A stretch of 64,000 nt of DNA. It comes from a bacterium. GTDB lineage: Bacteria; Cyanobacteriota; Vampirovibrionia; Gastranaerophilales; Gastranaerophilaceae. Location: NCBI GenBank assembly GCA_017470245.1, contig JAFUEV010000044.1:51904-115903 (forward strand), written 5' to 3'. Position numbers and translations under genes: made by a program. The notes below the pieces were generated by a model. The model was not told the origin of the DNA and made no database searches. It worked only from the letters and a program-made list of their open reading frames with translations. Positions 7,710-16,168 of this stretch are shown here, piece after piece. Each line of letters begins with the position of its first letter. Position 1 is the stretch's first letter.

Positions 7710-10532
7710 TTGGTTAATTCATATAATATAAATAAAAACGGTATATATGACAGTTCTAATGTTCAAGATATTAGGAGTAATTCTTCATATAACTTTTCAT
7801 CTTTAATTTTAAATAACAAATCCAAACCGGACTGTTTTAAATATTCTATTTCAGAGAATAATGTTTCAGCGTTAAAAAAACAATTTGACGAAATACAAAC
7901 TCACCAAGGGCTTATAGGTAAAGCCTGGAATGGTATTAAGAAAATTTTTGGAGGCGGTTCAAAAAAAGTAGAAAAAGCTATTTCACAATATGAAAATGGT
8001 GAAATTTCATTTGAACAGGCTCAAAGAATTCTTGATAAATACAATAAAGGTCAAAAAATGAGTGTTGATGTTGCAGCAGAAGTAATATCAGGTATTGCAT
8101 CTGTTACAGCTTATAATACAACACTTCCGAAAGACAAAGTTTCTATTGTTGCAGGACTTGCTGCATCAACGTTAACAGGTGCCAGTGTTAAAACCGGTAT
8201 TAAATATGCTGATGCAAAGGTTGGAAAAAGAGAATATACATCTAAAGATTTGGCTTATGATGCTGCTACAGGTGCAATGAACGGAATAATGGGACCTGTT
8301 TCTAATGCTATCGGAGCTAAAACCACAGAAGTTTTAGGTAATAAATTTGGACTTGAAGTTATTAGTGATGGCGTAAAAGCAGCGACAAAAAATGCTACAG
8401 GTATAAAAGGGAAAATTGCCAATATATTAACAACGCAAAGAGTTGATGTTAAAGGTGGTACTCTTGCAAAAAGAGCAGTAGCTCTTGGTGTCGGTATGGC
8501 AATTGATGGTGCATTAAGCAGTGCTTCCGATAATATGTTAAGAGCCGGATTTAACGGAGAAAATGTACTTAAAGCTGGTGTTCAAGGTGCCGTTGGTGGT
8601 GCTGTTGCTGCGCCTGTTCTTGGCGGTGGATTTAGACTTGCAGCAAGTGCAGGTAAAAAAATTAATAATAAGTTAGTTACATCCAGAGTGCTCAGAGACG
8701 GAATGAAAACAACATTCAATCAAGGTGAAACCGGCGATTGTTCTTTATTAACTATCATTGACGGATTAATGCATAATCCCAATGCTCAAAATAAAATAAA
8801 AAACTCTATAACACATAGTGTTGGCGGTGATTATTTCGTCCAAATAGGAGATACTACAGTAAGAGTTGCTAAAGAATCCATAACAGATGAAATGTTATCA
8901 GATGTAACTGGTATCCGTATATTTGAACAAGCATATAAACAAGTTGCAGGTGATTTGGACGGTGGTTTTGCAGATGTTGTTGCAAAACAATTCGGACTTT
9001 CTCCTGTTCATATTACATCCGATTCTATTACTGATGATTTATTAAATACTCTTGCAAAACAAAAAGATAATAATGTTTTATCGTTAGGTCTTAATGTTGA
9101 TGATTTAGGAGCTATATCTCCAACTGGACAAAATCGACATTATTTTGCTATTAGAGACATAGATACAGCCAACAGGCGAGTAAAGTTGGTAAATCCTTAT
9201 GATACATCTACTGTTATTGATATGTCTTTTGATGATGTTACAAAAACAGCTATATCTATCGATGGAGGTACAGTTACAAAATCTTCTTTGCCTAATGTCG
9301 CCAGAGAAGCAGGTGAAATTGCTTTTAAAGGCATTGATATTGATTATAAAGTTAAAGCTTTAAATGAATTTTTTAATATATCCGGTGATAAAAAATTTTC
9401 TTTTTCCGACTTTTTAGCTTCATCTGACATTTCTTGTAAGAAATATACCGTTAAAGATTTTGCTGCATTACTTGAATTAAATCGCATTTCTTTTGATGAA
9501 ATTTCGGAGTTTCTTGAACATTCATCAGCTACAACTACATTTAATGAGTTATTTACAGAATATGGAGAAGATGAAGCTCAAAAAATTATATCTCGGTTGA
9601 TACAGATACTTGAGCAAAAACAAATAATTTCTCGTATAGATGTTCTTGAACCTTATCATTTATCTCTTTCTCAGTTAGATGATTTTTTAAGTGCATCCGA
9701 GGTCTACGATGGTTCTAAAATGAGTAAAGTACTAAGAAGTGCAAATCCTGAAGTATTTGAAGCTATGGGTGGTGAAAAATACATTAATGATAATCTTACA
9801 ATTGTGTCGAATAGTCAAATCCCCTCTGAATTATCAATGTCACCTGAACATTTGATTGAAATTCCTTCTTCCGGAAAACAAAAAAGATTTTTCTTGTTTA
9901 AAAATTCTCCTTCAATTCCTCACAAACAACATCATTTTGATCAAAAATCTTGGATAACACTTATAAAAAGTAATATGATTACTGAAGATGCTATAGAAAT
10001 TGCACAAAAGAAAGGATTAAAATTCCCTGCAACTTGTAAAGTTAATCTTAAAAATAATAAGGGAACTATTGAATATGTTACTGCTGAGTTAATTGAAAAG
10101 GCACAAAGAGAAGGATACGATAAATTGTCTTCCTTTGAAATTCATGCACTAACCGATATGCTTAAAAATTTATATAAAGGTAATGAAAAAATATTATCAT
10201 CAAATACTAAGCTTGTATCTATGGCAGATAGAATATATGATGTCGTTGATTTTTTGAGAAAATCTATGCCTAATAGTCCCACATCAAATATAGAAATTGG
10301 TGACCATGCTTTATTGAGGATGATGGATAGAAATATTGCTAATGTAGTTGATAATTCAACCGGTAATGTAATTGAATATGGTAATTTTATTAAATTAATT
10401 TTAGAAAATGCAAATGATGCAATAAAAAAAGGAAAAAATGAATTTGTAATTTCCGGAGTAGAAGGCTCGTCAGGAATAAGAGTTTTATTGAAAAAGGAAG
10501 GAAGTAAATTTATTATAGATAGTATTATATAA
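7710..10532 (+). CDS. Modular effector/toxin-like protein. It has a shared N-terminal module, a Gly/Ala-rich hydrophobic region, a calpain-like cysteine protease domain, a helical region and a possible DUF4258-like C-terminal domain.
   Basis: 940-aa ORF with a TTG start. The start is supported by its paralog, since both begin MV[NQ]S. There is no signal peptide. Residues ~41-135 align with the 14249..16168 product. The protease has a QGETGDC motif (Gln338, Cys344, codon 8739..8741), RHYFAI (His477) and LVNPYD (Asn495), giving calpain-like order and spacing. The C-terminal signature is GDHALLRMMDRNI. Confidence 0.8.
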   Translation: MVNSYNINKNGIYDSSNVQDIRSNSSYNFSSLILNNKSKPDCFKYSISENNVSALKKQFDEIQTHQGLIGKAWNGIKKIFGGGSKKVEKAISQYENGEISFEQAQRILDKYNKGQKMSVDVAAEVISGIASVTAYNTTLPKDKVSIVAGLAASTLTGASVKTGIKYADAKVGKREYTSKDLAYDAATGAMNGIMGPVSNAIGAKTTEVLGNKFGLEVISDGVKAATKNATGIKGKIANILTTQRVDVKGGTLAKRAVALGVGMAIDGALSSASDNMLRAGFNGENVLKAGVQGAVGGAVAAPVLGGGFRLAASAGKKINNKLVTSRVLRDGMKTTFNQGETGDCSLLTIIDGLMHNPNAQNKIKNSITHSVGGDYFVQIGDTTVRVAKESITDEMLSDVTGIRIFEQAYKQVAGDLDGGFADVVAKQFGLSPVHITSDSITDDLLNTLAKQKDNNVLSLGLNVDDLGAISPTGQNRHYFAIRDIDTANRRVKLVNPYDTSTVIDMSFDDVTKTAISIDGGTVTKSSLPNVAREAGEIAFKGIDIDYKVKALNEFFNISGDKKFSFSDFLASSDISCKKYTVKDFAALLELNRISFDEISEFLEHSSATTTFNELFTEYGEDEAQKIISRLIQILEQKQIISRIDVLEPYHLSLSQLDDFLSASEVYDGSKMSKVLRSANPEVFEAMGGEKYINDNLTIVSNSQIPSELSMSPEHLIEIPSSGKQKRFFLFKNSPSIPHKQHHFDQKSWITLIKSNMITEDAIEIAQKKGLKFPATCKVNLKNNKGTIEYVTAELIEKAQREGYDKLSSFEIHALTDMLKNLYKGNEKILSSNTKLVSMADRIYDVVDFLRKSMPNSPTSNIEIGDHALLRMMDRNIANVVDNSTGNVIEYGNFIKLILENANDAIKKGKNEFVISGVEGSSGIRVLLKKEGSKFIIDSII

Positions 10533-16168: not shown

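Follow-up and report, generated by a model that had tools for sequence, protein, structure and literature searches.

An N-terminal module with exchangeable C-termini in Gastranaerophilales: a candidate lineage-specific family of exported polymorphic toxins

Two genes in a 64,000-nucleotide stretch of a Gastranaerophilaceae genome (contig JAFUEV010000044.1 of assembly GCA_017470245.1, positions 51,904 to 115,903; hereafter the window) encode proteins that are homologous over an N-terminal module and unrelated in their C-termini. Both genes, termed A and B, belong to a large modular family in which this constant front part precedes a highly variable C-terminal domain (the warhead), and in which warhead and neighboring gene are replaced together, as cassettes, at syntenic loci. 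From these sequence features we regard A and B, with a probability of about 0.6, as members of a lineage-specific family of exported polymorphic toxins or effectors. Both open reading frames (ORFs) are present as given in a first-pass annotation of the window:

7710..10532, + strand: gene A, 940 aa, TTG start; N-terminal module, calpain-like domain and C-terminal domain; AlphaFold2 (AF2) model available
14249..16168, + strand: gene B, 639 aa; short-type N-terminal module, helical region and kinase-like domain; AF2 model available

The Shared N-Terminal Module

The segments A16-123 and B19-126 are 38% identical (BLASTP, E 6e-16), and a second, weak high-scoring segment pair (E 1e-3) falls within the Gly/Ala/Val-rich part. 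When other family members serve as bridges, the alignment extends to B19-291 and A16-288 (30% identity), so that the homologous block proposed in the first-pass annotation is real while its length, put there at about 95 residues, is actually about 270. When the six-frame ORFs of the whole window were searched with phmmer, the N-terminus of either protein had the other as its sole match (E 2e-19 and 5e-20), which places the similarity between A and B far beyond chance and the number of copies in the window at exactly two. The family profile is matched over its full length by A49-317 and B50-285; the module measures about 270 residues, or about 240 in the shorter type to which B belongs. A disordered leader rich in Asn, Ser, and Lys comes first, then a helical block, and finally a helical region that is rich in Gly, Ala, and Val and contains a hydrophobic hairpin:

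7710..7850, + strand: leader of A, aa 1-47, polar and Ser/Asn/Ile/Lys-rich; predicted local distance difference test score (pLDDT) <50; poorly conserved in the family alignment
7851..8684, + strand: N-terminal module of A, aa 48-325; BLASTP match to B, family profile match, all-helical model
14249..14398, + strand: leader of B, aa 1-50, polar and Asn/Lys/Gln-rich; predicted disordered, pLDDT ~30
14399..15121, + strand: N-terminal module of B, short type, aa 51-291; BLASTP and family profile matches, AF2 helices

The leaders are thus polar and predicted to be disordered over the 40-50 residues originally described, and by composition neither contains a hydrophobic stretch or a signal-peptide-like core, in keeping with the reported absence of a signal peptide from both proteins. 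The AF2 model of B places helices at residues 53-65, 69-81, 87-98, 104-140, 149-167, 177-198, 210-243, and 251-284. Three short helices hold the motifs QG-IGK-W--(I/F)KN, GxGxxS, and NGEIS, the last of which draws repeated SHOCT-like matches, all of them sub-threshold. A long helix enters the hairpin, where the family pattern reads VD..AD..SGI.AVGA...AP.TGGASL..AA..GA..K.GIK, and amphipathic Gly/Ala/Val-rich helices bear repeated D..TG..NG-type motifs and end at P.IGGGF[RK]. The compositional bias noted earlier is pronounced in both proteins, with 17% Ala, 14% Gly, and 11% Val in A117-325 and 17% Gly, 16% Ala, and 16% Val in B120-291. The AlphaFold models of A and B are all-helical over the module, with pLDDT values of 50-87 that are low across the hairpin proper.

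Neither A nor B nor any of 29 representative modules scored above threshold with a model of Pfam, NCBIfam, or PADLOC, and sequence and profile searches of the PDB with the module returned nothing significant. Foldseek gave no significant match to the N-terminal module, and the calpain-like and kinase-like domains accounted for most of what its whole-protein runs returned. The module is therefore, as first suspected, unlike any described trafficking domain at the thresholds of these four resources, nor did the shared block match a characterized housekeeping domain in any of them. In literature searches, neither the module family nor any toxins or weapons of Gastranaerophilales or Melainabacteria were found to be described. 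A phage or plasmid origin was considered and set aside, as searches of viral contigs and plasmid records yielded no relatives; membership in a known defense system was likewise rejected, as PADLOC had no match for A, B, or the partner genes.

Family Size, Range and C-Terminal Diversity

A search with the module profile recovered 1052 representatives, defined as 50%-identity clusters, at E <= 1e-3, of which 389 reach E <= 1e-30. In every one of 306 family sequences the module is located close to the N-terminus, with residue 52 as the median start, and between 2 and 1713 residues stand behind it. Some members carry an N-terminal extension of about 170 residues, which in the one checked (P0083) is a repeat of the first helical block. 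With full-length queries, A had 112 relatives and B had 80 in gut metagenomes and Gastranaerophilales genome bins, the orthologues of both genes being about 40-55% identical across species. The taxonomic range was judged from a scan limited by a sequence pattern, with each species represented by one genome and with a narrower alignment that covers close relatives only. Most of the 23 loci found there come from Gastranaerophilales bins, others from bins labeled "uncultured Vampirovibrio" or "uncultured bacterium," and the single labeled exception is a 4-kb contig binned as Bacillota.

Behind the module, at least 94 C-terminal architectures were distinguished among 289 proteins, 67 of them singletons, when the module, along with any calpain-like domain, was removed and the remainders were grouped at 70% mutual coverage. 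Homologues are hence not tied to one fixed C-terminus, and the swappable C-termini postulated from A and B alone are borne out both by this count and by the block replacement of warhead and neighbor described below. Pfam families among the C-termini comprise ADPrib_exo_Tox, RelA_SpoT, HD, PRTase-CE, UPRTase, ABC1 kinase, GNAT, FHA, and Peptidase_C2 (extra calpain motifs), together with a tyrosine/dual-specificity phosphatase (DSP-PTPase, Tc-R-P) that Pfam annotates as "polymorphic toxin system." The HD warhead is Cas3-HD-like in PADLOC, where the PRTase also has a weak match, and the consensus of the RelA/SpoT-like group shows the canonical motifs R.K..S..K, D..G.R, and ElQirG..EH..Y. Most C-terminal remainders, including that of A, have no Pfam match.

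Cassette Replacement at Syntenic Loci

Genes A and B flank the housekeeping gene pckA, as the first-pass annotation had stated; RtcB and a 173-aa ORF likewise lie between them:

10525..11046, - strand: 173-aa ORF, convergent with A and overlapping its 3' end by 8 nt
11088..12266, - strand: RtcB, between A and B
12517..14115, + strand: pckA, between A and B

A polymorphic-toxin logic is supported most strongly by the exchange of whole blocks at syntenic loci, of which the locus of A, next to RtcB, is an example. In one genomic context (L005), RtcB is found together with an orthologue of A and a convergent ORF of 179 aa. Compared with a second context (L007), the DNA is 83% identical from the upstream gene to about nt 1650 of the effector gene, and the encoded effectors are 87% identical up to residue 582; no similarity is seen over the warhead and the partner gene, and it resumes in RtcB. 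At the RtcB locus of a third context (L036), the warhead is a relative of the one in L007 and is accompanied by a 149-aa ORF, and the variable domain of A (aa 546-940) is accordingly exchanged for other domains at the same locus in both L007 and L036. The RtcB locus (7710..12266 of the window; L005, L007, L036) is thus a hot-spot for cassettes.

Two further loci behave in the same manner. At the M16-peptidase locus, P0022 with an ADP-ribosyltransferase (ART) warhead and P0055 with an HD warhead are 71% identical up to residue 537 and unrelated thereafter, between flanks of 78% identity. At the OAD-beta/FliI locus, P0149 and P0128 are 67% identical up to residue 287 and then unrelated, with flanks of 88-92%, and an extra 152-aa ORF occurs solely with the RelA/SpoT-like version. 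Members may also cluster: L035 contains ART and ABC1 members 4 kb apart, and its segment 10001..21990 additionally holds, between and behind these two, an ADP-ribosylglycohydrolase, a 101-aa ORF with an FYPED motif, unannotated ORFs of 607 and 122 aa, and a convergent 249-aa ORF.

The remaining window is core chromosome (SecY, Mur ligase, PheT, RecG) with a GC content of about 30%. A CHASE2-adenylate/guanylate cyclase gene followed by RecG is found at 43786..48166 (+ strand) of the window and at 1466..5884 of L036. In L036 this pair lies directly upstream of the effector and RtcB, which indicates rearrangement around the effector locus between species.

Partner Genes

At several loci the small genes next to family members covary with the warheads. 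The 173-aa ORF beside A is 37% identical to a 179-aa ORF in the same position beside the A orthologue P0005, and this type of ORF is absent or replaced where the warhead differs. It has no family match in Pfam, NCBIfam, or PADLOC and is a candidate immunity or antidote protein. The partner of B is co-directional:

16202..16612, + strand: 136-aa partner ORF, downstream of B

This ORF is 55% identical to a 138-aa ORF that follows the B orthologue P0116, and its family shares the motifs ERE[VM]PENGxF and GTKxxIL; homologues of 24-28% identity also follow RelA/SpoT-like members. Elsewhere in the family, ART warheads adjoin ADP-ribosylglycohydrolases at two independent loci (L001, L035) and a small ORF with the FYPED motif at three (L010, L014, L035), and ABC1 warheads have a convergent ORF of some 250 aa beside them, of which the versions in L035 and L037 are 44% identical. 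As far as gene order can tell, these pairings fit a toxin-immunity relationship.

The Calpain-Like Module and the Variable C-Terminus of A

Behind the N-terminal module, A continues into two further domains:

8685..9344, + strand: calpain-like (papain-fold) cysteine peptidase module of A, aa 326-545; invariant residues, Foldseek matches
9345..10532, + strand: variable C-terminal domain of A, aa 546-940; pLDDT 80-90; 23 homologues

A calpain-like domain is present in 107 of the 306 family proteins, always directly behind the module and ahead of differing C-termini, and thus forms part of the constant region rather than a warhead. The first-pass annotation had treated the calpain-like domain as the swappable C-terminal part of A; the variable part of A is confined to residues ~546-940. 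Across 19 sequences, Q338, G339, D343, C344, H477, and D498 are invariant in the calpain-like domain. The motif NQGETGDCSLL of A fits the calpain QGxxGDC[WS] type with its oxyanion Gln and catalytic Cys. As for the remainder of the Cys-His-Asn triad, H477 is invariant, the Asn in the "NPY" of A is not conserved, and the invariant D498 may stand in its place. Foldseek matched A to calpain protease cores (probability 1.0, TM-score ~0.4, E ~1e-2) and more weakly to C39 peptidases, and A has no match to Peptidase C2 (PF00648) at E <= 0.1. The original designation as calpain-like is hence supported by the QGxxGDC...H motifs and the structural matches, at a level below the threshold of the curated family; on this footing A326-545 is calpain-like and not a demonstrated member of the calpain family. 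It is a candidate protease for processing or release of the warhead. The variable domain itself (aa 546-940) matches nothing in Pfam, NCBIfam, the PDB, Foldseek, or plasmid records.

The Kinase-Like C-Terminus of B

The part of B that follows the module divides into two regions:

15122..15454, + strand: helical region of B, aa 292-402; pLDDT >90; found only in 8 B-family proteins
15455..16168, + strand: protein-kinase-like domain of B, aa 403-639; conserved motifs, weak fold matches

The second of these contains a Gly-rich loop of the form GSGxxGTG (LGSGSYGTGYKV...VLKIF), and G464, G467, K483, and E525 are invariant, E525 presumably being the alphaC Glu. In the catalytic region N606 and D614-[YF]-G are invariant; the Asp five residues before the Asn is not conserved, D584 being an alternative. 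All of the top 50 Foldseek matches of B are protein kinases, aligned over ~111 columns that comprise the N-lobe only (probability 0.96-1.0, E 0.02-0.13), and profile matches in the PDB to CTR1 and LRRK2 are weak (E 0.2-0.4). The C-terminus of B has no match in Pfam or NCBIfam. With the G-loop, Lys, Asn, and D[YF]G motifs and the kinase N-lobes found by Foldseek, the earlier suggestion of a kinase-like domain is reasonable, although short of any curated family threshold.

Two other assignments were rejected. Residues 368-639 appeared RelA/SpoT-like (toxSAS) at E ~1e-30 in hhalign and hmmsearch only while the template contained the B family; once B-family sequences were removed, the hhalign probability fell to 0.4%, which rules this assignment out. 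Similarly, residues 291-367 had been taken for a shared linker that could account for the partner family common to B and the RelA/SpoT-like members, a result of BLAST over-extension, as jackhmmer finds this region only in the B group.

The Hydrophobic Hairpin

The bilobed hydrophobic stretch noted early on in B is confirmed by a hydrophobicity (KD19) maximum of 1.92 at residues 121-140:

14600..14728, + strand: hairpin of B, aa 118-160; bilobed hydrophobic glycine zipper, KD19 1.92
8058..8201, + strand: hairpin position of A, aa 117-164; degenerate in A, KD19 ~1.2

The family median of KD19 at the hairpin is 1.86. Within B120-291 the motif GxxxG occurs 14 times (5.0 +/- 1.9 in shuffles) and GxxxGxxxG 8 times (0.8 in shuffles), and for the small-xxx-small-xxx-small motif the median z-score across the family is 2.3. 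The hairpin of A reads SVTAYNTTLPKDKVSIV, that of its orthologues AVGAFALAVPTGGASL; the P-TGG turn is lost from A, and "AVPTGGASL" is kept in the orthologues. In the copy found in A, membrane insertion may thus be lost or altered.

Weak matches recur on the hairpin. ThrE, glycine-zipper families, and Tim17 are all sub-threshold, and Pfam ApoL matches at the hairpin in 6 of 29 modules (E <= 0.1), neither A nor B being among them; the best (P0192) scores 25.3 bits against a cut-off of 25.9, and the matches span only ~50 of the 298 profile positions. Profile searches of the PDB gave weak hairpin matches to the paramyxovirus F fusion-peptide region and to 8bgm_B, deposited as "Toxin," and the model of the type VI secretion system (T6SS) effector Ssp4 weakly matched one stand-alone module, again at the hairpin. 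These matches may have a compositional origin; jointly they point to a membrane-inserting helical hairpin rather than to membership of any family.

The module also occurs by itself. A complete stand-alone module of 298 aa (P0193) is found on two contigs, next to a 78-aa ORF with a hydrophobic stretch of ~22 residues near its N-terminus (by inspection), which may be membrane-embedded. The arrangement recalls a pore-forming bacteriocin with its membrane immunity protein:

L033 142..1300 and L034 324..1482: stand-alone N-terminal module P0193 with convergent 78-aa ORF

Proposed Mechanism and Export Route

If the family indeed consists of exported polymorphic toxins, the protein would leave its producer by some export route, and the N-terminal module would act as a membrane-inserting device that either anchors it or takes it as far as, or through, a membrane, the likeliest candidate being the cytoplasmic membrane of the target cell. 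There, the glycine-zipper hairpin and the amphipathic helices would insert and help the C-terminal enzyme cross, and the calpain-like peptidase, present in about one third of members including A, would cut the warhead free. In the producer, the product of the neighboring gene (173 aa for A, 136 aa for B) would neutralize the warhead, or else shield or chaperone the hydrophobic module. What the sequences show is the homology, the modular build, the exchange of cassettes at syntenic loci, and the covariation of neighbors with warheads; export, membrane translocation, proteolytic release, toxicity, and immunity are inferred. A precedent is the T6SS DNase Tde1, whose N-terminal glycine zipper is required for translocation into prey (PMC10240207). 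The internal protease with intact Cys and His is counted in favor of an exported toxin, since it is like the releasing peptidases of polymorphic toxins.

As to the route, a cluster resembling a type I secretion system (T1SS) lies 2.4 kb downstream of B, beyond several hydrophobic or unassigned genes:

within 16643..18468, - strand: two multi-pass hydrophobic ORFs (374 aa and 112 aa) without Pfam match
18151..18468, - strand: DUF4236 protein, between the partner gene of B and the T1SS cluster
18537..19580, - strand: HlyD-family adaptor
19619..21781, - strand: ABC exporter with N-terminal C39-like domain, catalytic Cys absent
21799..23229, - strand: TolC-like outer-membrane efflux protein
23312..25789, - strand: putative exporter with 10 transmembrane segments and a second outer-membrane efflux protein

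The C39-like domain without catalytic Cys indicates an exporter of the HlyB type, which recognizes C-terminal signals, rather than a peptidase-containing ABC transporter of bacteriocins. Export through 18537..23229 by such a transporter, with a double-glycine leader, was accordingly rejected, as the catalytic Cys is absent and the cluster is not found near other members in the contexts examined. A double-glycine leader was also dismissed by inspection: the only conserved glycines, in "QG" and "GxG," do not fall into a GG/GA/GS cleavage site with its -4/-7/-12 pattern. In addition, a FliI-type ATPase gene of the type III secretion system (T3SS) kind is found in convergent orientation beside a family member at a single syntenic locus (L003 11903..13249; L030 7628..8974), and a FliD gene lies near another member (L036 11212..12957). 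The organisms therefore carry flagellar genes; as a hint at the export route, the proximity is suggestive only.

Several observations weigh against an exported toxin. A signal peptide is lacking, the genomic contexts examined share no consistently linked secretion genes, and the T1SS cluster is not conserved near other members in these contexts. Family genes occupy conserved housekeeping neighborhoods, not mobile elements. The models of the N-terminal module are of moderate confidence only and have no significant structural match, and the hairpin of A itself is degenerate, its low KD19 being joined by a GxxxG count without excess over shuffles. Among the partners, the 136-aa family stands behind two unrelated warheads, a pattern more in keeping with a chaperone than with a specific immunity protein; it may serve as a chaperone or adaptor for the short-type module. 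Finally, an ADP-ribosylglycohydrolase (582 aa; L032 8354..10102) is kept beside an HD (Cas3-HD-like) warhead, whose 581-aa C-terminal region may contain a hidden second activity.

Alternative Explanations

The absence of both a signal peptide and a linked secretion system would be accounted for if the proteins acted inside the producer, in intracellular conflict or defense (toxin-antitoxin, abortive infection), with the N-terminal module anchored in or perforating the producer's own inner membrane, the protease as a switch, and the neighbor as antitoxin. We consider this improbable. In its favor, RelA/SpoT-like, ADP-ribosyltransferase, kinase, GNAT, HD, and PRTase domains also occur among toxin-antitoxin and defense effectors, some warheads weakly match the PRTase and Cas3-HD models of PADLOC, the genes are chromosomal and syntenic, and the partners look cytoplasmic, with no hydrophobic segment by inspection. 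However, PADLOC recognized no known defense protein in A, B, or their partners, and no relatives turned up in phage or plasmid records. Furthermore, the proteins are very large, with a constant front of ~300 aa and a protease, unlike typical toxin-antitoxin toxins, and the sharp breakpoints between constant N-part and variable C-part, together with clustered paralogues, are the signature of exported polymorphic toxins.

A stronger form of the exported-toxin reading, which we hold to be unlikely, is that the N-terminal module constitutes a self-contained delivery device: the leader would take an unconventional export route (for example flagellar type III, or lysis and vesicles), the zipper bundle would insert into a target membrane and bring whatever enzyme is attached to it to the other side, and the protease would free the cargo.

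Doubtful to a slightly greater degree is the view that the proteins are effectors aimed at a eukaryotic cell, whether of the animal host or of a gut protist, which leave through the flagellar type III or another route and whose hairpin would insert like chlamydial Inc proteins or T3SS translocators. We take the first ~50 residues, disordered and rich in Ser, Asn, Ile, and Lys, to resemble type III export signals, and the bilobed hydrophobic hairpin is in line with such a role, as is the eukaryotic flavor of the calpain-like, kinase-like, C3/VIP2-type ADP-ribosyltransferase, PTPase, and FHA domains and of the ApoL-like similarity. The FliI-type ATPase beside an effector and FliD near another likewise suit this view, although the FliI adjacency amounts to a single syntenic locus and no injectisome genes were seen. 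The related lineage Vampirovibrio is described as a predator of algae (PMC4451040). On the other hand, ADP-ribosylglycohydrolase and other partners imply that the producer needs protection, as is typical of antibacterial toxins, and the RelA/SpoT-like, PRTase, and HD nuclease-like warheads hit universal or bacterial targets.

That these are ordinary housekeeping or regulatory enzymes sharing an N-terminal membrane tether is very improbable: the conserved position by pckA and RtcB and the orthologues kept across species at ~40-55% identity would suit it, but at least 94 architectures, abrupt replacement of warhead and neighbor between close relatives (87% identical in the N-part, unrelated in the C-part), toxin-family domains among the C-termini, and ADP-ribosyltransferase paired with ADP-ribosylglycohydrolase at independent loci all speak against it.

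Relation to Known Systems

The exported-toxin reading can be set against several characterized systems. With the polymorphic toxins (CdiA-CT, Rhs/YD, LXG, MafB) the family shares a constant N-part, a hypervariable enzymatic C-domain behind a sharp junction, small cognate genes in adjacent position, cassettes replaced at conserved loci, an optional internal processing peptidase, and common toxin domains (ADP-ribosyltransferase, DSP-PTPase "Tc-R-P," HD, RelA/SpoT-like). It differs from them in that its N-terminal module matches no described trafficking domain, a signal peptide is lacking, no type V, VI, or VII secretion apparatus is linked to it, and one partner family is common to two unrelated warheads. 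In its logic, as far as this can be read from gene and protein sequences, the family is a polymorphic toxin system, one for which neither a recognized trafficking domain nor a linked secretion system was found.

T6SS effectors with N-terminal transmembrane regions include the prePAAR effectors with their Eag chaperones. The Agrobacterium effector Tde1 with its adaptor Tap1 resembles the family in having an N-terminal, GxxxG-rich, membrane-permeabilizing segment before an enzyme toxin that acts in the cytoplasm, and in the small adjacent gene (PMC10240207); the adjacent protein of such effectors binds the N-terminus, a role that the partners in the present family may share. In contrast to T6SS effectors, no PAAR, VgrG, or T6SS genes were seen near family members, and the module is ~270 aa long with a conserved helical block of its own.

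Colicins and S-type pyocins likewise have no signal peptide, a disordered N-terminus, a constant N-terminal part for uptake, and an exchangeable C-terminal killing domain, and in place of their immunity gene the family has an adjacent neighbor, sometimes convergent; the stand-alone module with its small, seemingly membrane-embedded ORF is reminiscent of a pore-forming colicin and its immunity protein. Unlike these bacteriocins, the family has no lysis gene, plasmid, or SOS context and no sequence or structural match to colicin domains, and its hairpin lies in the N-terminal constant part instead of the C-terminal killing domain. A helical bundle with a central hydrophobic hairpin is also found in the ApoL/colicin-type pore-forming domains, as reflected in the recurring Pfam ApoL matches at the hairpin, all of which are below threshold and unaccompanied by a significant structural match.

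In members of the A type, moreover, one polypeptide contains a membrane-inserting region, one or more effector domains, and, internally, a cysteine protease, much as in MARTX and the large clostridial toxins; this points to autoprocessing once the protein has been translocated. In contrast to those toxins, the protease is calpain-like (papain fold) and not an InsP6-activated cysteine protease domain of clan CD, domain order and size differ, repeats are missing, and the target is probably bacterial.

Implications for the Gastranaerophilales

Gastranaerophilales are widespread gut bacteria, of which, to our knowledge, no cultured representative exists; nor do we know of a T6SS or a contact-dependent inhibition system in this diderm lineage. 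What is new here is the N-terminal module, the lineage, a presumably undescribed export route, and the large set of uncharacterized warheads. If the proteins are indeed exported polymorphic toxins, the family, with its more than 1000 sequence clusters and dozens of warheads, many of them without known fold, would be the main arsenal of the Gastranaerophilales. With the module, the known N-terminal domains for trafficking or translocation of polymorphic toxins would gain a new type, and there would be a concrete handle on the export route in a diderm lineage; the C-termini and their neighbors would amount to a library of uncharacterized enzymatic toxin domains and candidate antidotes. The modular front end may also be of interest for protein-delivery engineering. 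Should the module in fact be a self-contained delivery device, it would represent a new mode of trafficking, by which non-photosynthetic relatives of cyanobacteria would attack neighboring bacteria in the gut, or even host or protist cells.

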